Source of the DNA: Escherichia coli
GTDB taxonomy: Bacteria > Pseudomonadota > Gammaproteobacteria > Enterobacterales > Enterobacteriaceae
Direction: 5' to 3' (one strand)
DNA length: 64,000 nucleotides
Assembly: GCF_030384885.1 (NCBI RefSeq)
Contig: NZ_CP128613.1
The position numbers and the translations under genes were made by a program. How positions within the stretch are numbered: the first letter of the stretch is position 1; every line of letters begins with the position of its first letter. This document shows positions 20,549 to 53,824 of the stretch, one piece after another. The notes under the pieces are model-generated. The model saw only the letters and a program-made list of their open reading frames with translations, had not been told where the DNA came from and did no database searches.

Positions 20549-23014
<2,466 letters not shown>

Positions 23015-23030
23015 GTTCACTATAAAATAG

Positions 23031-23060
23031 AACGGGGCCAAATCGGTCCCGTTTTTTTTC
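23031..23060 (+). terminator. rho-independent terminator of the glg operon
   Basis: aacggggcc-aaatc-ggtcccgtt stem followed by an 8-T run. Confidence 0.75.
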
Positions 23061-23131
23061 GCCTTTATTTCGGAGAAGTGTCCAGAGGGGCAAGGGGATT
23101 CGGGGGAGTATAATTTCGCCATTCAGAAAGA

Positions 23132-24649
23132 ATGGAAAGAATAATGCAAAACAGAAAATGGATTTTGACCTCGCTGATAATGACTTTTTTCGGCATCCCC
23201 ATACTGGCGCAATTTTTGGCAGCGGTTATTGCCATGCTGGGGGCCGGGCTTGCCGCTATTCTTGAGGCTTGCAATTTACTCTTTACGCCAACAATTTATC
23301 TTCTACTCAACGTCTTTATGCTGACGCTGGGGGCGATAATCCTATTTTTCTCTGGTCGCGTGTGGGCCGGTGATAGCGCACCAGAAAACAGAGAAATAGC
23401 CGTCTGGCGGCAATGCTTTTTTCTTTTACCTGCACTGTTAACTCTGGTTGGCTGGATAATCACGCTACATCTGGCAGATTATCAATTTCGCCAAATGGGA
23501 GCAGGTTGGTTGGCAGAGCTTATGCTCCCCTGGCTGGGAGTTTTGTTAGTCTCATTAGTCGGAGGTGAGTTCTGGTGGATAGTCATTATACCCGTTGGTG
23601 CGCATATTAGTTTTTCGCTGGGGTATGGCTGGCCGACCAGATATCCTTTAACCGGCACGTACGGGTTACGTTGCCGTAATTCCCTCCTGTTTATCCTTCT
23701 CATGCTTGGTTTTATCGCTGGTTATCAGGCTTATTTATATAAACAGATTAATCCCGGCGTCGGTGTGCGTGAAAATATTGATACCTGGGCCTGGCGACCC
23801 GATAAACTCAATAATCAACTGACGCCACTGCGTGGTAAACCGCAAATTCAGTTTACACAAAACTGGCCGCGACTCGATGGTGCTACGGCGGCGTACCCAA
23901 TTTATGCTTCTGCCTTTTATGCGTTGAGCGTTATACCGGAAGATTTCCACACATGGGAATATCTGGAGAACTCTCGTACCCCCGATGCATATAACAGGAT
24001 TGTTAAAGGTGATGCCGATATTATTTTTGTGGCGCAACCTTCCGGTGGGCAGAAAAAACGTGCAGAGGAATCGGGCGTCACTTTGAACTACACTCCTTTC
24101 GCCCGTGAAGCATTCGTTTTCATCGTCAATGCGGATAACCCGGTTAATTCCCTGACTGACCAACAGGTGCGTGACATCTTCAGTGGCGCAATTACCAACT
24201 GGCGTACTGTTGGCGGTAACGATCAGGAGATCCAGACCTGGCAACGCCCGGAAGACTCTGGCAGCCAGACAGTGATGCAATCGCAGGTCATGAAAAATGT
24301 CCGCATGATCTCGCCGCAGGAAACCGAAGTGGCAAGCATGATGGAGGGAATGATTAAAGTTGTTGCCGAATACCGTAATACAAACAACTCAATAGGCTAC
24401 ACCTTCCGCTATTACGCAACACAAATGAATGCCGATAAAAATATAAAACTGCTAGCTATTAACGGTATTGCACCGACTGCGGAAAATATTCGTAACGGCA
24501 AATATCCATATATCGTCGATGCCTTTATGGTAACGCGGGAAAATACTACGTCAGAAACACAAAAACTGGTCGAATGGTTTTTAACGCCGCAGGGGCAGAG
24601 TCTGGTGGAAGATGTGGGTTATGTACCGTTGCATACAACAATGAAATAA
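23132..24649 (+). CDS. islet 1 gene 1: polytopic membrane domain fused to a PstS-like (phosphate-binding-protein fold) periplasmic domain
   Basis: 505-aa ORF; residues about 1-200 form several hydrophobic helices; the C-terminal part shows PstS-like motifs (AAYPIYASAF; QRPEDSGSQTVM, compare PstS RADGSGTS; SIGYTFRYYA). Function not assigned. Confidence 0.7.
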   Translation: MERIMQNRKWILTSLIMTFFGIPILAQFLAAVIAMLGAGLAAILEACNLLFTPTIYLLLNVFMLTLGAIILFFSGRVWAGDSAPENREIAVWRQCFFLLPALLTLVGWIITLHLADYQFRQMGAGWLAELMLPWLGVLLVSLVGGEFWWIVIIPVGAHISFSLGYGWPTRYPLTGTYGLRCRNSLLFILLMLGFIAGYQAYLYKQINPGVGVRENIDTWAWRPDKLNNQLTPLRGKPQIQFTQNWPRLDGATAAYPIYASAFYALSVIPEDFHTWEYLENSRTPDAYNRIVKGDADIIFVAQPSGGQKKRAEESGVTLNYTPFAREAFVFIVNADNPVNSLTDQQVRDIFSGAITNWRTVGGNDQEIQTWQRPEDSGSQTVMQSQVMKNVRMISPQETEVASMMEGMIKVVAEYRNTNNSIGYTFRYYATQMNADKNIKLLAINGIAPTAENIRNGKYPYIVDAFMVTRENTTSETQKLVEWFLTPQGQSLVEDVGYVPLHTTMK

Positions 24650-24674
24650 CTTTTGAGAGAACGGAATCAGCGCG

Positions 24675-25667
24675 ATGAATAAATTCATAGGCGTTTTACT
24701 GCTAGGTGCGGTTTTACTGGCGGGATGTGTCGACCGGGAAGGCTACTATAACAGCGTCAGGGAAGAAGACAGCCATGGACTGACGACTCTGCGGGGGCAA
24801 CCTGAATTACGTTACAACGATGATTGGTCAAGATGGCCGAGAGTATACGGCGCTACAGCCTTATACCCGCTGTATGCCTCCGCGTATTATGAATTAGTAC
24901 CCGAGCCAAAAGATAAGGATCGAACCTCGCTGGCCTGGCAGGCGTATGGTTTGCAACAAACCCGAACAGCTGAAGCCTACGATAGTCTGATCAAGGGTAC
25001 CGCGACGGTTATTTTTGTTGCACAACCGTCGGAAGGACAGAAAAAACGTGCAGAAGAAGCAGGCGTTAAACTGAAATATACCGCGTTTGCCCGCGAAGCC
25101 TTTGTCTTTATCGTTGATATCAAAAACCCGGTTAATTCACTTAGCGAACAGCAGGTCAAAGACATTTTTAGCGGTAAAGTGAGTCGCTGGAATAAAGTGG
25201 GCGGCGGTGACGAAAGTATAAAAGTCTGGCAGCGGCCAGAAGATTCTGGAAGCCAAACGGTTATGAAGGGACTGGTTATGCAAGATACTCCAATGCTGCC
25301 AGCCAAAAAATCCACTGTTATCGATCTTATGGGCGGTTTAATTACCGAAGTCGCCGACTACCAAAACACAACATCTTCCATTGGATACACCTTCCACTAT
25401 TACGTCACACGTATGAATGACAATATGCTCAAAATGCGCAAACAGATCAAACTGCTAGCTATAACTGGCATTGCGCCTACAGAGGAAAATATCCGTAACG
25501 GCACTTATCCGTACATAATTGATGCTTATATGGTGACGCACGAAACCCCTGCGCTGGAAACGCAGAAATTCGTCGACTGGTTTTTAAGCCCGCAGGGACA
25601 GCAATTGGTAGAGGATGTGGGGTATGTGCCGATTCATGACGCATCATACGAATCATCAGTGCAATAA
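24675..25667 (+). CDS. islet 1 gene 2: lipoprotein with PstS-like substrate-binding domain
   Basis: 330 aa; lipobox LLAGC; same motifs as the gene-1 C-terminal domain (ALYPLYASAYY; QRPEDSGSQTVM; SIGYTFHYY). Confidence 0.72.
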   Translation: MNKFIGVLLLGAVLLAGCVDREGYYNSVREEDSHGLTTLRGQPELRYNDDWSRWPRVYGATALYPLYASAYYELVPEPKDKDRTSLAWQAYGLQQTRTAEAYDSLIKGTATVIFVAQPSEGQKKRAEEAGVKLKYTAFAREAFVFIVDIKNPVNSLSEQQVKDIFSGKVSRWNKVGGGDESIKVWQRPEDSGSQTVMKGLVMQDTPMLPAKKSTVIDLMGGLITEVADYQNTTSSIGYTFHYYVTRMNDNMLKMRKQIKLLAITGIAPTEENIRNGTYPYIIDAYMVTHETPALETQKFVDWFLSPQGQQLVEDVGYVPIHDASYESSVQ

Positions 25668-26269
25668 TGATGAATAAAATCAGACTTTATATTCCTCCGT
25701 TAATTCTTGGTTTTGTTATTGTGCCGTTGTTGGTGTGGCCGACGGTGGTTGCGCTGGCTGCTTCTGTTATCACGCTGAGTTTTCTGGGAGAGATACTGTT
25801 CTCTATCCCGCTCATGATCAGGCGTATTTCACTTCTGCAATTACAACTATGGTTATCGGCTGAATATGCGCTTTTCTTCTGTGCAATGGTGGGCGTTGGT
25901 TGGCAATTTGCGCGCAGAACGCCACCTGAATTGAAAAGCAGACTGCATTGTTGGCTGGTATTTGCACCAGTTTATTTCTGGTTGCTCCTGTGGAATATCA
26001 TTTTCTATGTCGCGCCAGCGAATATTGCGTTGCTGGAGAATATGCGCAGTTTCTTTCTGACAGTTGTCTGGCTCCCACTGAATTTTTCGCCATTTTGGTC
26101 TCAACCGTGGATTGACTTTGTCGGTCCAATAAGCGCACAGCTTGGTTTTGCGTTGGGATATTATTGCCAGTGGCGTAGCAAAAATAGAAGCCAGATACGG
26201 AAGTGGAGTGAGTGGGGAACGTGCCTGAGTTTTGTTACGTTGGGTATGATGGCGTGGGCTTTGCGGTAA
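25667..26269 (+). CDS. islet 1 gene 3: small polytopic membrane protein, paralog of the gene-1 N-terminal domain
   Basis: 200 aa, 4-6 hydrophobic segments; PISAQLGFALGYYCQW resembles PVGAHISFSLGYGW in gene 1; start ATG overlaps the gene-2 stop (TAATG). Confidence 0.65.
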   Translation: MMNKIRLYIPPLILGFVIVPLLVWPTVVALAASVITLSFLGEILFSIPLMIRRISLLQLQLWLSAEYALFFCAMVGVGWQFARRTPPELKSRLHCWLVFAPVYFWLLLWNIIFYVAPANIALLENMRSFFLTVVWLPLNFSPFWSQPWIDFVGPISAQLGFALGYYCQWRSKNRSQIRKWSEWGTCLSFVTLGMMAWALR

Positions 26270-26376
26270 TTCCCTGACTCAAAAAGTAGGTCAGATTGTT
26301 GACAAAGTGCGCTTTGTTCATGCCGGATGCGACATGAACGTCTTATTGGCCTACAAGACCATGCAAATTGTAGTGG

Positions 26377-27626
<1,250 letters not shown>

Positions 27627-27647
27627 AATTCAATATATTGCATAAGC

Positions 27648-27678
27648 CACGTAGGCCTGATAAGCGTAGCGCATCAGG
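27648..27678. repeat. REP (repetitive extragenic palindromic) element
   Basis: gtaggcctgataagcgtagcgcatcaggca fits the REP pattern GCCTGATGCG...CTTATCAGGCCTAC. Confidence 0.7.
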
Positions 27679-27692
27679 CAGTTTTTTGTTTA

Positions 27693-27742: not shown

Positions 27743-29248
27743 TTACGACGCCAGCGACAACCTCTGCTGCGTATATTCCCCTAGCCACTGACTCACACGG
27801 GATTGTTGCTGCGCATTCAGCCACATGCCTTGTTTTGTGCGACGCCACAGGGCATCGTCGGCGCGGCGGACCCATTCGTGGTCGACCAGATATTTCAGCT
27901 CTGCTTCGTAAAACTCATGCCCGAAATCCTCCCCAAGATCGCTTACCGCCCCCGCATTGCCGAGCAGCAGCTCGCTATTGCTGCCGTAAGTGCGCGCGTA
28001 GTGACGTGCCAGCGATTCAGTCAGGAACGGGTAACGGCGGCGCAGGCGGGCGGCGTAATCGTCGCGGTCGCCTTCAATGGCTCCGCCCGGCAGCACGCTC
28101 TCTTTCGTCCACGCTGGGCCAATGCCCTGATAATATGGCGTCAGTTTTTCCAGCGCGTGTTCCGCCAGTTTGCGGTAGGTGGTCAGCTTACCGCCGAATA
28201 CCGATAACAGCGGAGCTTTGCCGTTTTCATCATGGATATCAAGGGTGTAATCACGGGTAATGGCCTGCGGCGAATCAGATTCATCATCACACAGTGGACG
28301 CACGCCGGAGTAGGTCCAGACGATATCATCCCGGCTTAGCGGCTTTTTAAAGTGCGCGTTATACACTTTCAGCAGGTAATTGATTTCACTCTCTTCAATC
28401 TTCACCGCTTTCGGATCGCCTTTATACTCCACATCGGTGGTGCCGATAATGGAAAACTCGTCCATCCACGGGATCACGAAGACAATACGTTTATCTTCGT
28501 TTTGCAGAATGTAGGCTTGCTTCTGGGTATGCACACGCGGCACGACAATATGGCTGCCTTTGATCAGGCGAATGCCATAAGGTGAGGGTAGATGCATACC
28601 GTCGTCGAAGAACTGCTTCACCCACGGGCCGGTGGCGTTCACGAGGCCGCGCGCTTGCCAGCTATATTTTTTGCCGGTATCGATATCTTCCGCTTCCACA
28701 ATCCACAGGCCGTTTTCGCGGCGAGCAGAAGTGGCACGAGTACGGGTAAGCACTTCACCGCCTTTACGCACCACCATCTGGGCGTTGGCGAGTACCAGAC
28801 GGGCGTCGTCTACCCAACAGTCGGAATATTCGAATCCGCGCTTAATTTCCGGTTTTAACACTGAATTTGCGCCAAAACGCAAACCGGTTGATCCCGGCAG
28901 GCTGGTGCGTTTACCCAGATGATCGTACATAAACAGACCAATACGGATCATCCACGCCGGACGCAGATGCGGGCGATGCGGCAGGCGAAAACGCATCGGG
29001 AAAGCGATATGGGGAGCCATTTTCAGCAACACTTCACGTTCAGCCAGCGCCTCGCTGACCAGGCGGAATTCATAGTGCTCAAGGTAGCGCAGGCCACCAT
29101 GAATGAGTTTTGAACTGGCGGAAGAGGTCGCACAAGCGAGATCCTGCGCCTCCAGCATCAGCACGGATAAACCGCGTCCAGCGGCGTCTGCCGCGATACC
29201 AGCACCATTGATGCCGCCACCTATCACAATCAGATCTTTGGTTTCCAT
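27743..29248 (-). CDS. glpD: aerobic glycerol-3-phosphate dehydrogenase GlpD
   Basis: Start set at METKDLIVIGGGINGAGIA (FAD-binding GxGxxG); 501 aa. Confidence 0.96.
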   Translation of the reverse strand: METKDLIVIGGGINGAGIAADAAGRGLSVLMLEAQDLACATSSASSKLIHGGLRYLEHYEFRLVSEALAEREVLLKMAPHIAFPMRFRLPHRPHLRPAWMIRIGLFMYDHLGKRTSLPGSTGLRFGANSVLKPEIKRGFEYSDCWVDDARLVLANAQMVVRKGGEVLTRTRATSARRENGLWIVEAEDIDTGKKYSWQARGLVNATGPWVKQFFDDGMHLPSPYGIRLIKGSHIVVPRVHTQKQAYILQNEDKRIVFVIPWMDEFSIIGTTDVEYKGDPKAVKIEESEINYLLKVYNAHFKKPLSRDDIVWTYSGVRPLCDDESDSPQAITRDYTLDIHDENGKAPLLSVFGGKLTTYRKLAEHALEKLTPYYQGIGPAWTKESVLPGGAIEGDRDDYAARLRRRYPFLTESLARHYARTYGSNSELLLGNAGAVSDLGEDFGHEFYEAELKYLVDHEWVRRADDALWRRTKQGMWLNAQQQSRVSQWLGEYTQQRLSLAS

Positions 29249-48480: not shown

Positions 48481-50802
48481 TTAGTGGCAATCGCCAGTGG
48501 TGCTGGCTGCACAGCAACTGCTTACCGATTTGCGTGTTGCCAGCAGTTCGATATCGACCCGGCTACGTGCGCGACGCAGCAAACCGATAACCACGATGTT
48601 AAACAGGATAACCGCCAGAATGCACACCAGGCTGTAAGTTGGGTGCTGGCTGTAGCTGGCGACCTGGTAGAACAATGTTGCCAGTGAGTAAGCAATATTC
48701 AGCCCCCACAGGATGGAGAAGCCCATCCAGCCACGGCTTGATTCACGGGCGATGGCCCCCATCACCGAGATACACGGTACATACAGCAGAACGAAAATCA
48801 GGTAGCTGTAAGCAGCTGCTGCGCTTCCAAATTTCTGATCCATCACGCCCATCGCTCCGGTACCCATTTCACCGTCGCCTTTGCTCGCTTCAATGGGGTT
48901 CATCAGTACGCTAAGACTGAAGGTGTCTTTCAGACTCTGCCAGGTTTCATCTACCGCGCTGAATAGCTCTTCACCGAGGTTAAATTCCGCCGGATTGAAC
49001 TCTTCATCCTGAATATTTTCTGCGGTGTAGAGAGTGTTGAGCGTACCCACTACCACTTCTTTCGCCATTGCGCCCGTGAACAGGCCAACTGTTGCCTGCC
49101 AGTTATCTTCATGTACACCAATCGGCTTGAAGACCGGGGTGATCACCCGACTAACGGAAGCCAATGCGGAGTCGTTGATGTTATCGACGATTTTCCCGCT
49201 CAGAGAGAAGCTGTTGAAAGCGCTCAGGAAAATGCTGACGATGATAATCACTTTACCAGCACGCAGAACGAAACCTTTCAGACGCTGCCAGGTCTGGATA
49301 ATCAGGCTTTTAACGTGTGGTACATGGTAGACCGGTAGCTCCATGACAAACGGCGTCGCTTCACCGCGCATGATGGTGTACTTGAGCATCAGGCCAGTCA
49401 GCACCGCCATCACAATACCGAGCATATACAGCGAGAAGACCGCCAGCGCACCGTTCTGCCCGAAGAAGGCAGCCGCGAATACGGCGAAGATAGCCAGACG
49501 CGCGCCGCAGGACATAAACGGTGCCATCATGATGGTCATCAGACGTTCACGCGGTGCATCAAGCGTACGTGCGCCCATTACCGACGGTACGTTACAACCG
49601 AAACCAACGATCAGCGGTACAAAGGATTTCCCGGGCAAGCCCAGCGCCTGCATCAGACGGTCCATCACAAACGCCGCACGCGCCATATAGCCGGAGTCCT
49701 CGAGGAAGGAGAGGAACAGGTACATCATGCCGATCTGTGGCACCAGTGGCAGAACGGTGTTAATACCGCCCCCCAGGCCCTGGGCGAGGAAGATAGTCAG
49801 CCAGTCCGGGAAGTGGAGCGTGTAGCCAATCCACTGAATACCATGCACAAATAGCGCCACGGAGCCGACGTCAAACAGTGGCTGTAACGCCCCGCCGATG
49901 TTGATAGCCAACAGGAACATCAGGTACATCACAAAGAGGAAAATCGGCAGACCGAGGAAACGGTTGAGCACGATTTTATCTACCGCAGTGGTGAAACGGC
50001 TGGGTTCTGCCGTCAGGGTGTTGCTTACCACATCACAGATGGCAGCAATGCACTGGTAACGCGCATCGGCAATGTGCAGCGCCGGATCGTCCATCTCATT
50101 ACGCAGACGGGCGAGGGCGGCATCAAGATGCTGCGACGCTTCACCGGCGTAGGCGCGGCTGTAGATATCGCCTTCCAGCATTTGCAGGCCCAGCCAGCGA
50201 CGTTGTTTGAGCGGGATGTCGGAAGGCATCACTTTTGCCAGTGAATCTGCTTCGTTGAGCAGCGGCTGTGCGTAATGCACCAGTTCCACATTCTCGTTAG
50301 CTTTATAGCGATCAATCGCCAGCTTGAGCGCTTCAATACCGCGACCACGAGTTGAAACCAGCGGGATCACCGGGCAGCCAAGACGTGCCGACAGAGCATC
50401 AATTTCAATGCGAATATTTTGCTTCTCGGCAATGTCGAGCATGTTCAGCGCCACGATGCAGGGAATGCCGAGTTCCAGCAGTTGTAGCGTCAGGTACAGG
50501 TTACGCTCAAGGTTAGACGCATCCACCACGTTAATCAGCAGGTCAGCGTCGCCACTCAAAATGTAGTGACAGGCGATTTGCTCATCGAGCGAGGTCTGCG
50601 ATGAGATGGTGGTCAGAGAATAGGTGCCGGGGAGGTCCACCAGCGTGACCTGATGATCGGTGGTGGAGAATTGCCCTTCTTTACGTTCGACGGTAACGCC
50701 AGCCCAGTTACCTACACGCTGGCGCGCGCCGGTGAGCTGGTTAAATAAGGTTGTCTTGCCAGAATTTGGATTACCAATTAAGCCAATGGTTAATTTTTTC
50801 AT
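48481..50802 (-). CDS. feoB: ferrous iron transporter FeoB (GTPase plus permease)
   Basis: Start set at [21 protein letters not shown] (G1 motif); large polytopic C-terminal domain. Confidence 0.95.
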
Positions 50803-50818
50803 TGTTGTTATCACCGTA

Positions 50819-51046
50819 TTAACAGGAAACCGCTTCCACTTCTAATAAGGCCAGATCTTTTTTGCGTAATACCAGGCTCACACGACGGGTTTCGATATGA
50901 ATGGGGTCGCCAAGTGGAGCGACGCGCACCACATTAAAAGAGGAGCCAGGTAACATGCCAAGAGAAAGCAGTTTTTGGCGATATGCCGGGCTGATTTCAC
51001 GGGAAAAGCCAGTGATTTTCCACGCAGTATCTGGAGTGTATTGCAT
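50819..51046 (-). CDS. feoA: ferrous iron transport protein FeoA
   Basis: 75-aa SH3-like ORF upstream of feoB. Confidence 0.9.
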
Positions 51047-51154
51047 AGGTGCCTACTTGTTTCTCATTAACTGGATAACTACCTCATGGGGCGTTTGACA
51101 GCGACATGAGACCAGATGATTTGCCAACAAAGGAGAGATTAAATAATCAACAAC

Positions 51155-51177
51155 ACAATGATAATGAGAATGGTTTC
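51155..51177 (-). promoter_or_regulatory. candidate Fur box in the feoABC promoter region
   Basis: aatgataatgagaatggtttc resembles the Fur consensus, about 110 bp upstream of the feoA start. Confidence 0.45.
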
Positions 51178-51430
51178 TATCAGCAATACTTAAAATGTGT
51201 GCGAATGTTGGTTTAGATAATAATCTGCGTGAATGTTGATGTGGCTCAAGGTTATATCGCAGCGAAAATATAATTCGAATGGCGAATTATCAGGGCGGGT
51301 TAATGTTTAATTAAGGTTTCATTTGTTAATTAAGTGATAAATATTGACGAAATATAGTGTGAGTTTCGTTGTGGAATAAAAATGCCGGAGATATTCTCCG
51401 GCATTTTTATGTCAGGCATGGCGTTTATTG

Positions 51431-51464
51431 CCAGATGCGGCGTGAACGCCTGATCTGGCCTACG
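51431..51464. repeat. REP element
   Basis: gccagatgcggcgtgaacgcctgatctggcctac is a classic REP sequence. Confidence 0.75.
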
Positions 51465-51502
51465 ATCTTGTGCAAATTCGAACCGTAGGCCAATCAGGAG
51501 GT

Positions 51503-53824
51503 TTAACGTTTTTTGCCCATTGCCGCCGCCAGCGCATCCATCATCGCGCTGTTACCGGCAGGCTGCGCTTCACGACCGCGTGGTTTGGCTGCCGGGCGGT
51601 TGTTTTGCGGGCGTTCATTACCGCCCCCGCGACGGGCGTTGGTTTCGCCAGGCTGCTCGTCCAGACGCATAGTCAGGGCGATACGTTTACGCTGAAGATC
51701 CACTTCCAGCACTTTCACCTTCACAATGTCGCCCGCTTTCACCACGGTATGCGGATCTTCCACAAACTTGTTCGACAATGAAGAGATGTGAACCAGGCCG
51801 TCCTGATGTACGCCAATATCGACAAACGCGCCAAAGTTGGTGACGTTGGTCACCGCACCTTCGAGGATCATACCCGGTTGCAGGTCGTTCATTGTCTCGA
51901 CGCCATCGGCAAACTGGGCGGTTTTAAATTCCGGACGCGGATCGCGACCCGGTTTTTCCAGCTCTTTGATGATGTCGGTTACCGTCGGCACACCGAATTT
52001 CTCATCAGTAAAGTCAGACGCTTTCAGGTTACGCAGTTCGCTGCTGTTACCCATCAGATCTTTCAGTGCCTGCTGTGTTGCTGCCAGAATGCGTTCCACC
52101 ACCGGATAGGCTTCCGGGTGAACAGTAGAGGCGTCCAGCGGGTTGTCACCGTGGTTAATGCGCAAGAAGCCTGCGCACTGCTCGAAGGCTTTTGGCCCCA
52201 GGCGGCTGACTTTTAACAGTTGCTGGCGGTTCTGGAACTGGCCGTTCTCATCGCGCCAGGCCACAATGTTTTGCGCCATCATGCGCGTCAGGCCCGCCAC
52301 GCGGGTTAACAGCGGAACGGAAGCGGTGTTGAGATCGACGCCAACGGCGTTTACGCAGTCTTCTACTACTGCATCCAGTTTGCGGGCCAGCTGCGTCTGG
52401 CTGACGTCATGCTGATACTGACCTACGCCGATAGATTTCGGATCGATTTTCACCAGCTCCGCCAGCGGATCCTGCAAACGACGGGCGATAGACACCGCGC
52501 CACGCAGCGAAACATCGAGATCCGGGAACTCCTGCGCTGCCAGCTCGGAAGCCGAGTAAACCGACGCGCCTGCTTCGCTGACGATCACTTTCTGTGCGGT
52601 CACTTTCGGAAACTGCTTCTGAACGTCGAGATAGAAACGCTCAGTTTCGCGGGAAGCCGTACCGTTACCGATTGCCACCAGTTCAACGTTATGTTTTTCA
52701 CACAAGGCAGCAACGGTCATCGCTGCTTTTGCGGCTTGTCCGGTGTGCGGATAAATGGTGTCGGTCGCCACCAGTTTACCCGTCGCATCGACTACCGCCA
52801 CTTTTACCCCGGTACGCAGACCCGGATCGAGGCCCATCGTCGCACGCAGTCCGGCTGGGGCCGCCATCAGCAGATCGTGCAGGTTACGGGCAAAGACGTT
52901 GATTGCTTCATCTTCTGCACGTTCGCGCACTGTACCCATCAGTTCGGTTTCCAGGTGCATCAGCACCTTGATGCGCCAGGTCCAGCTCACCACGCCTTTG
53001 CGCCAGCTATCCGCCGGGGCATTGTTCAGGCGCAGACCGAGGTGATCCATGATGATTTGCTCGCAATAGCTCTCTTTTGGCGGTTCGTCGAACTGCGGAT
53101 CGGCATTTAGCGAAAGCTGGAGTACGCCTTCGTTACGCCCACGGAACATCGCCAGCGCGCGGTGAGAAGGCACCGTTGACAGCGGTTCGTGATGATCGAA
53201 ATAGTCGCGGAATTTCGCCCCTTCCTCTTCTTTACCGTTCACCACCGTAGAAACCAAATGCGCGTTCTTCCACAGATAATCACGCACTTTCGCCAGCAGC
53301 GCGGCATCTTCGGCAAACCGTTCCATCAGGATATAGCGCGCGCCGTCCAGCGCGGCTTTGGTATCTGCTACGCCTTTATCGGCATCAACATATTGTGCAG
53401 CGGCGACTTCTGGCGTGTGCGACGGATCGTTCCACAGTAGGTCGGCCAGTGGCTCAAGTCCTGCTTCAATAGCAATTTGCCCGCGGGTGCGGCGTTTAGG
53501 TTTGTAGGGCAGGTAGAGGTCTTCGAGTTCGGTTTTGCTTAAGGTGGCGTTGATAGCATTCGCCAGCTCGTCGGTCAGTTTGCCTTGCTCGGAAATGGAC
53601 TTGAGGATTGCCTGACGTCTCTCTTCCAGCTCGCGCAAATAGCTCAGACGCGTTTCCAGATTACGCAGTTGCGTGTCATCCAGACCGCCGGTGATTTCCT
53701 TACGATAACGTGCGATAAACGGCACGGTATTCCCTTCGTCAAGCAGGCGAACGGCAGCGTCAACCTGTTCCGGGCGCGCCTGAATTTCACCCGCAATAAT
53801 GCGGCAGAACGAATCATTCATCAT
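51503..53824 (-). CDS. yhgF: Tex-like RNA-binding protein YhgF (S1 domain)
   Basis: 773 aa; C-terminal S1 domain and basic tail. Confidence 0.93.

Follow-up and report, generated by a model that had tools for sequence, protein, structure and literature searches.

The closest described relative of the proteins analysed here is PstS, the phosphate-binding protein of the ATP-binding cassette (ABC) importer PstSCAB. The locus in question lies between glgP and glpD in a 64,000-nucleotide stretch of Escherichia coli DNA (RefSeq assembly GCF_030384885.1, contig NZ_CP128613.1); this whole stretch is referred to as the window. The locus comprises three genes on one strand, named g1, g2 and g3. A preliminary description, made from the sequence alone, had given them as open reading frames of 505, 330 and 200 codons, and these were confirmed.

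23132-24649, plus strand: g1, 505 residues, polytopic membrane domain fused to a PstS-like binding domain
23132-23815, plus strand: membrane domain of g1, residues 1 to about 228 (from the structure model and the distribution of Lys and Arg)
23816-24646, plus strand: linker and PstS-like (PBP_like_2) domain of g1 (from Pfam, profile and Foldseek)
24675-25667, plus strand: g2, 330-residue lipoprotein with a PstS-like domain (lipobox LAGC, Val at position +2)
25667-26269, plus strand: g3, 200 residues, free copy of the g1-type membrane domain

In E. coli PstS, the carboxylate of Asp56 selects protonated phosphate. Like PstS (TIGR02136-type structures in the PDB: 4q8r/4gd5, 1twy, 4exl), g1 and g2 have the type II fold; equivalents of the PstS residues T10, S38, R135, S139, G140 and T141 are kept in the g1 family, in a pocket at helix N-termini. 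Unlike PstS, the g1 family scores below the TIGR02136 cut-off, has an Ala instead of Asp56 and carries the motifs PFAREAFVF and WQRPxDSGSQ. Furthermore, no pstCAB-phoU genes are linked to it, and in g1 a polytopic domain replaces the cleavable signal peptide. In OpuA/OpuABC and GlnPQ, a substrate-binding domain is fused to an ABC permease. g1 resembles these proteins in that its binding domain sits covalently on a polytopic membrane domain, at the outer face of the membrane. However, the membrane domain of g1 is not an ABC permease (no Pfam or fold match), and no ATPase gene is associated with it. LuxP-LuxQ, TorT-TorS and AioX-AioS are binding proteins that co-sense with membrane histidine kinases. 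The likeness to g1 is that the state of the ligand could be read by a membrane partner, as hinted at by three kinase operons of Paenibacillus; in E. coli and most other lineages, however, no kinase is linked to the g1 family. Finally, orphan toxin-immunity arrays of the Rhs or polymorphic-toxin type share with the locus the same-strand runs of small unrelated genes of lower guanine-plus-cytosine (G+C) content and the turnover of cassettes from strain to strain. They differ in that the window contains no toxin fragment, that g1 is syntenic across genera and that its small-molecule pocket is conserved across phyla.

The reading we favour, with a probability of roughly 0.4, is that g1 and its relatives are ABC-independent, membrane-tethered periplasmic receptors for an oxyanion or a phosphoryl group, which signal or sequester at the membrane.

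Binding domain and membrane domain

Pfam assigned the PBP_like_2 domain (PF12849) to residues 250-485 of g1 (E = 1.4e-29) and residues 94-306 of g2 (E = 3.4e-29); the two PstS-like domains are 59% identical. A family profile of 46 diverse full-length relatives was compared with PDB sequences and matched phosphate-binding proteins only (best E = 2.9e-26). An AlphaFold model of g1 reached a predicted local distance difference test score (pLDDT) of 89.2 and a predicted template modelling score (pTM) of 0.80. The top PDB matches of this model in Foldseek were all PstS, with a target-normalised template modelling score (TM-score) of about 0.8. According to Pfam and Foldseek, g1 and g2 therefore have the type II periplasmic binding-protein fold of the PstS family that had been proposed for them.

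Pocket residues were assigned by alignment to PstS from C. perfringens (4q8r) and E. coli, the first motif being aligned by hand without gaps (GATAAYPIY versus GATFPAPVY). In the 46 full-length members, G250-A251-T252-A253, T283, R372 and S376-G377-S378 are invariant (g1 numbering). The residues T252, A253, T283, R372, S376, G377 and S378 correspond to T10, F11, S38, R135, S139, G140 and T141 of E. coli PstS, and the pocket residues are located at helix N-termini in the model of g1. In this alignment, seven of the eight phosphate contacts of E. coli PstS are kept in kind, that of A253 by the backbone. The sequences also contain features that set them apart: the TIGR00975 score of 16.7 is below the curated PstS-family threshold of 205, and both signatures of the subfamily, PFAREAFVF and WQRPxDSGSQ, occur in g1 as well as in g2. 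Judged from these alignments, the binding domain of g1 and g2 is a distinct PstS subfamily with an intact oxyanion-type pocket that lacks the carboxylate of Asp56.

The N-terminal part of the g1 model consists of six long helices (residues 2-46, 53-82, 87-114, 119-144, 149-169 and 177-206). Across the family, Lys and Arg are abundant in the N-terminal tail and in the loops 75-93 and 168-182. By the positive-inside rule, this distribution suggests an N-in topology with five spanning helices and one non-spanning helix, which would place the binding domain in the periplasm. Residues 5-228 of g1 match a hidden Markov model of the family membrane domain, which was built here from alignment A2, with E = 3.8e-73. 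No Pfam match was obtained for the membrane domain in 32 of 32 members, the family profile found no match to the membrane part among PDB sequences, and structure searches gave no similarity to any transporter or solved fold. When searched against 1.84 billion representative proteins, the membrane-domain profile retrieved 187 clusters only. In nearly all full-length clusters the membrane domain is joined to this PstS subfamily, and none showed a different domain partner. P23, W108 and Q199 are invariant in the membrane helices, and few polar or charged residues are conserved. The binding fold is thus known; what is new is a dedicated membrane domain without known relatives, together with an ABC-independent lifestyle.

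For g3 alone, Pfam yielded no match. The comparison of the g3 family with the N-termini of the g1 family by hhalign gave a probability of 98.4% (E = 5.7e-15), colinear over 169 columns. A profile made exclusively from the membrane domains of the fusion proteins found the representative of the g3 family among the 1.84 billion proteins with E = 3e-14. Moreover, a model of g3 (pLDDT 81.6) matched only membrane domains of fusion proteins in AFDB50, at query-normalised TM-scores of 0.6-0.73, and the last helix is directly followed by the end of g3, at the very point where g1 continues into the linker of its binding domain. g3 is a paralogue of the g1 membrane domain and not, as the bare term 'membrane protein' of the preliminary description might suggest, unrelated to g1. 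The locus therefore carries the two domains once joined in a single protein and once as separate proteins. The idea of a split system, in which a free membrane-domain gene always stands beside a gene for a free binding protein, was unsupported: one standalone membrane-domain gene lacks a binding-protein neighbour, and the Salmonella relatives of g2 have no g3-like neighbour. Under the name 'putative periplasmic phosphate-binding protein', the AlphaFold database lists a protein of 679 residues from E. coli TA447 (A0A1X3IUT8). Over 177 aligned columns it shares 85% identity with g3, and it may combine a binding-domain gene and a g3-type membrane domain by read-through.

The N-terminus of g2 is a signal peptide followed by the lipobox LAGC with Val at position +2. 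Its relatives are lipoproteins with varied lipoboxes, none of which has Asp at +2. A 350-residue protein from Superficieibacter electus (P0066; L023, 6016-7056) looks intermediate between the fused and the lipoprotein forms, since its lipobox LSGC sits inside the last membrane helix of the fusion type. This position suggests that the free lipoproteins may have arisen from fusions by N-terminal truncation.

Gene neighbourhoods and candidate functions

Relatives with the motifs PFAREAFVF and WQRPxDSGSQ are present in the genomes of at least 582 species. Among the matches listed are Enterobacterales, Betaproteobacteria, Coriobacteriia, Propionibacteriaceae, Synergistaceae, Treponema, Opitutaceae and many Bacillales. 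The Bacillales members have 380-400 residues and three helices with the same juxtamembrane linker; as far as sequences indicate, the membrane tether is conserved across phyla, including this three-helix form.

No ABC permease or ATPase genes accompany g1-g3, as had been noted before. With E. coli PstC, PstA and PhoU as queries, tblastn gave no match in the window, and the sole PstB-like match, at a distance of about 22 kb, was a generic ABC ATPase. Near a family gene, pstB was found in one of about 100 related loci, on the other strand, and linkage of the pstCAB type was not found otherwise. The family gene is solitary, without an ABC partner, in Salmonella, K. oxytoca, Brachymonas, Leclercia and Jinshanibacter. 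Across 80 species loci there was no conserved neighbour; only generic ABC ATPases and histidine kinases occurred, at varying distance. RefSeq names both g1 and g2 'PstS family phosphate ABC transporter substrate-binding protein' and g3 hypothetical; for g1 and g2, the database label of a phosphate ABC transporter binding protein is probably wrong in what it implies. The literature on yzgL (see below) and on fused or orphan PstS contained nothing functional, and no function of g1-g3 was assigned in the literature and database sources searched, in agreement with the preliminary description. The neighbourhoods that recur in several loci are as follows.

L046, 4622-7098; L069, 4649-7113; L066, 5459-6984: histidine kinase and family gene of Paenibacillus
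L107, 6001-8449; L010, 4074-9503; L011, 7449-12065: neighbourhoods with polyphosphate kinase 2 (PPK2) or ruv genes
L002, 6764-8244; L004, 3564-5044; L104, 6866-9152: alternative cassettes at the E. coli glgP-glpD junction

In three Paenibacillus species, the gene of a polytopic, sporulation-kinase-like histidine kinase overlaps the start of the family gene, and htpG follows downstream. A PPK2 gene occurs nearby in two lineages only: directly downstream of the family gene in Leclercia, and upstream of it, at a distance of about 3 kb, in Brachymonas. ruv genes are adjacent in Salmonella and Brachymonas: the family gene abuts ruvB in Brachymonas, and a second Salmonella paralogue is located between ruvC and ruvA.

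According to the favoured reading, a family-private helical domain would hold a PstS-type domain permanently at the outer face of the cytoplasmic membrane, where it would operate without an ABC transporter. The binding domain would use the helix-N-terminus pocket formed by T252, T283, R372 and S376-G377-S378 to close on either a tetrahedral oxyanion or a ligand that carries a phosphoryl group; because Asp56 is replaced, this ligand need not be protonated orthophosphate. Occupancy would be read out, or the ligand held, at the membrane via the membrane domain or a membrane partner, and nothing would be pumped. g2 would be a lipoprotein derivative of the binding domain and g3 a free copy of the membrane domain; the three genes would form a single operon, whose locus is ancestral and often decays. 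This reading starts from the observed folds, paralogy, pocket conservation, lack of ABC partners, purifying selection and distribution; the class of ligand, the topology and the signalling or sequestering output are what it adds.

Two further observations speak for it. The overlapping kinase genes of Paenibacillus are a hint at signalling. A hint at a phenotype comes from O-island 133 of O157 EDL933, which is probably the same locus, as deduced from PMC4041753, PMC2241611, PMC2907692 and the numbering of locus tags; the alleles of this island and of the window are about 90% identical, not identical. In a screen of enterohaemorrhagic E. coli (EHEC), deletion of O-island 133 lowered type III secretion (PMC3378721).

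Several findings weigh against the favoured reading, and in the first place against orthophosphate as the ligand. The position of Asp56 is occupied by A301 in g1, the TIGR02136 scores of g1 and g2 are 118.8 and 115.8 bits compared to a cut-off of 206.6, and no match to the Pho box CTGTCATAWAWCTGTCAY with up to three mismatches was detected anywhere in the window. For these three reasons orthophosphate is not assured as the ligand. A phosphate-specific role is uncertain in view of the loss of Asp56, the lack of a Pho box and toxin-immunity neighbourhoods that provide a serious rival. With respect to signalling, conserved charged residues are almost lacking in the membrane domain and there is no output domain on the cytoplasmic side, so that an extra partner would be needed, and the linkage to histidine kinases is limited to one genus. 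The notion of a binding-protein-dependent signalling unit has consequently gained lineage-restricted support from the three Paenibacillus operons and none beyond that genus. In E. coli, lipoproteins without Asp at +2 are sorted by the Lol system to the outer membrane. By this rule, g2 is predicted to be an outer-membrane lipoprotein, which fits poorly with docking on g3 in the inner membrane. Furthermore, the locus is dispensable, since about 38% of the 5426 complete E. coli genomes have lost all or part of it (presence being defined as at least 80% coverage). Finally, the gene arrays described below for enterobacterial relatives show a pattern typical of orphan toxin-immunity arrays.

A wider version of the favoured reading would combine these strands: a self-contained, ABC-independent envelope module that acts as a sensor or gate for phosphate-like anions, or as a protection factor that binds a phosphoryl-bearing target, that is shuffled in fused, lipoprotein and membrane-only forms within enterobacterial immunity-type arrays, and that feeds into the control of type III secretion in EHEC. 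We consider this combination possible but doubtful. Ligand and output of the g1 family would add a new mode of using binding proteins at the membrane, and its function would explain a polymorphic E. coli locus, yzgL and, if the equivalence is true, O-island 133.

The rival that survives best is that g1, g2 and g3 shield the envelope from an antibacterial effector or small molecule acting in the periplasm or at the membrane, and that the glgP-glpD junction is an orphan immunity-type array. It draws on the neighbours of the family genes. Other E. coli strains lack g2 in the middle of the locus and have in its place a gene of the YbbD family (236 residues) and one to two Cys-rich paralogues (255-262 residues, starting with MQPSPAMQ; no Pfam or NCBIfam match); an ankyrin-repeat gene is present in addition in longer arrays. 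The genes that follow g1 in Salmonella and K. oxytoca are of the YbbD_head and DUF4279 types, and DUF4279 has been reported as immunity-associated (PMC13304343). The Salmonella enterica arrays L100 and L102 (whole loci), which lie beside a Peptidase_U32 gene, each encode two paralogous PstS-like lipoproteins related to g2. Interleaved with the genes of these lipoproteins are an N-terminal Rhs-core fragment (E = 4e-33), an HExxH toxin-like fragment with a small lipoprotein gene behind it, a fragment of the nuclease toxin domain Ntox34 (PMC9635880) with a gene for a HEAT-repeat protein behind it, and several genes for small lipoproteins or secreted proteins. Presence and absence of the locus are polymorphic, and g3 falls into two deep allelic classes with about 70% amino-acid identity and a synonymous divergence (dS) of about 0.9. 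Among five loci compared, one class of g3 occurs with g2 (the window and L097) and the other with the YbbD-type or the 255-residue cassette (L002, L004 and L005); in L098, which carries g2, g3 is intermediate (82% amino-acid identity). If functional, the link to Rhs orphans and immunity arrays would represent a new kind of envelope defence.

However, no cognate toxin was found: the open reading frame of 131 residues upstream of a Salmonella g2 relative has neither homologues among long effectors nor a Pfam domain. In the window, g1 directly follows glgP and is not encoded downstream of a cognate toxin or a fragment of one, and the window contains no toxin fragment. From Firmicutes to Proteobacteria, the anion pocket does not vary, which an inhibitor of protein toxins would not be expected to need, and outside the Enterobacteriaceae the family gene stands among housekeeping genes. 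The co-location could also merely reflect a permissive junction of low expression. PADLOC gave zero matches for anti-phage defence, and the search of PHROGs matched the generic phage PstS family only; a role as an anti-phage defence system was rejected on these grounds. On balance, an immunity cassette is unlikely.

Orphan binding proteins that feed distant transporters are known, as are membrane-anchored binding proteins. g1 and g2 might thus be tethered binding proteins that hand over a phosphate-like ligand to an ABC importer encoded elsewhere, PstCAB or another one. The nearest relatives by sequence and structure are all ABC-type phosphate-binding proteins, and most of the phosphate contacts are kept. 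Nevertheless, this explanation is distinctly unlikely: it is at odds with the missing pst linkage in about 100 loci (one nearby pstB), with the PstS score below cut-off and with the lack of a Pho box, and a dedicated, conserved six-helix domain exceeds the needs of an anchor.

A new binding-protein-dependent secondary transporter or channel, in which the six-helix domain, perhaps as an oligomer, forms the permeation path and g2 plus g3 are its split version, is very unlikely. Membrane and binding domains co-occur obligately, the pTM of 0.80 of the two-domain model would be consistent with a defined docking of one on the other, and fused and split arrangements stand in one operon, the stop codon of g2 overlapping the start of g3. 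Yet a permeation path is hard to reconcile with helices that, apart from the invariant P23, W108 and Q199, contain few conserved polar or charged residues, with Bacillales members that have three helices only, with a g2 that is predicted to reside in the outer membrane, and with the lack of similarity to any transporter fold.

Layout and history of the locus

The chromosome of E. coli 2013C-4282 (NZ_CP027579.1) contains the window with 100% identity, and RefSeq annotates the same three coding sequences in it. The surroundings of g1-g3 are listed below.

20567-23014: glgP, upstream of g1
23031-23060, plus strand: hairpin with T-run after glgP, resembling an intrinsic terminator, left boundary of the locus (direct reading of the sequence aacggggccaaatcggtcccgtttttttt)
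26322-26357, no strand assigned: palindromic element 3' of g3 resembling a repetitive extragenic palindromic (REP) sequence (sequence reading)
26369-27626, minus strand: IS3-family insertion sequence of 1258 bp with orfA/orfB and a programmed frameshift, outside the module
about 27644-27680: second REP-like element in opposite orientation (sequence reading)
27743-29248, minus strand: glpD, convergent with g1-g3, right boundary of the locus

The gap between g1 and g2 is 25 nucleotides, and the stop codon of g2 overlaps the start codon of g3 (TAATG); the three genes were therefore read as one operon. A consensus scan for promoters and terminators yielded nothing exceeding the shuffled expectation, and the hairpin at 23031-23060 was absent from its output. 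The G+C content is 45-49% over g1-g3 and about 50-58% in the flanks; it is lower than in the flanks, as had been stated, and slightly higher than the mid-40s given.

The locus had been introduced as an accessory islet, a term that is misleading. Orthologues of g1 with about 50% identity occupy the same position between glgP and glpD in Salmonella and Klebsiella oxytoca. K-12 carries, as already stated in the preliminary description, only the fragment yzgL at this site (K-12-type yzgL: L003, 2741-2962). In yzgL, the first 235 nucleotides or so of g1 are joined directly to the last 60 or so of g3 (23132-23366 and 26210-26269 of the window); it is therefore the remnant of an internal deletion in the ancestral locus. 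The dS values of g1 and g2 (0.10-0.38) are similar to those of glgP and glpD (0.20-0.26). The identity of 90-93% between the islet and most E. coli is unremarkable, because glgP and a feoAB/yhgF segment 27 kb away (20567-23014 and 50000-52500) likewise reach at least 99% identity in no more than 10-14 of the 5426 genomes and 95-99% in the remaining ones; compared to a typical strain, glgP has a dS of about 0.2 and encodes a protein that is 100% identical. By these identities the source strain belongs to a rare divergent E. coli lineage. Recent horizontal acquisition was ruled out by the flank-like dS, the strain-wide divergence and the synteny with Salmonella and Klebsiella. As far as can be judged from the sequences, the locus is ancestral, old and often decayed and not a recent insertion.

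In the survey, g1 was present in 3347 of the 5426 genomes (62%), with a partial match in 1290 more; g3 was present in 2053 and g2 in 884. Nissle-type strains have a fimbrial operon in the place of g1.

The ratio of nonsynonymous to synonymous divergence (dN/dS) is 0.14-0.20 for g1 (0.21-0.29 in the membrane part, 0.08-0.16 in the binding part), 0.13-0.19 for g2 and 0.17-0.39 for g3, compared to at most 0.04 in the flanks. All three genes are under purifying but relaxed selection. The possibility of a disrupted pst operon, which the preliminary description had wished to see checked, is ruled out by the intact reading frames, these ratios (0.13-0.39 for the three genes) and the lack of pstC, pstA or phoU remnants. 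That the locus is a decaying relic without current function in this strain is most improbable, given three intact reading frames, dN/dS values well below 1 at a dS of 0.1-0.9 and an intact g1 in 3347 of 5426 genomes.

The start of g1 is ambiguous, with in-frame ATG codons at 23132 and 23144. The RefSeq start at 23141 is an ATA in this strain and an ATG in other strains, whose protein begins with MMQNRKW.

The preliminary description had ended the module at 26368, which is the left edge of the IS3-family element that it had overlooked. This element ends in inverted repeats (TGTAGTGG...) and is flanked by a 3-bp duplication of its target, AAT, at 26366-26368 and 27627-27629. It separates g3 from glpD and is inserted between the two palindromic elements, which we take to be REP elements by their likeness to the REP consensus. 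With a 4.9-kb query covering the locus and the insertion sequence, this genome alone among the 5426 was matched over at least 80%.

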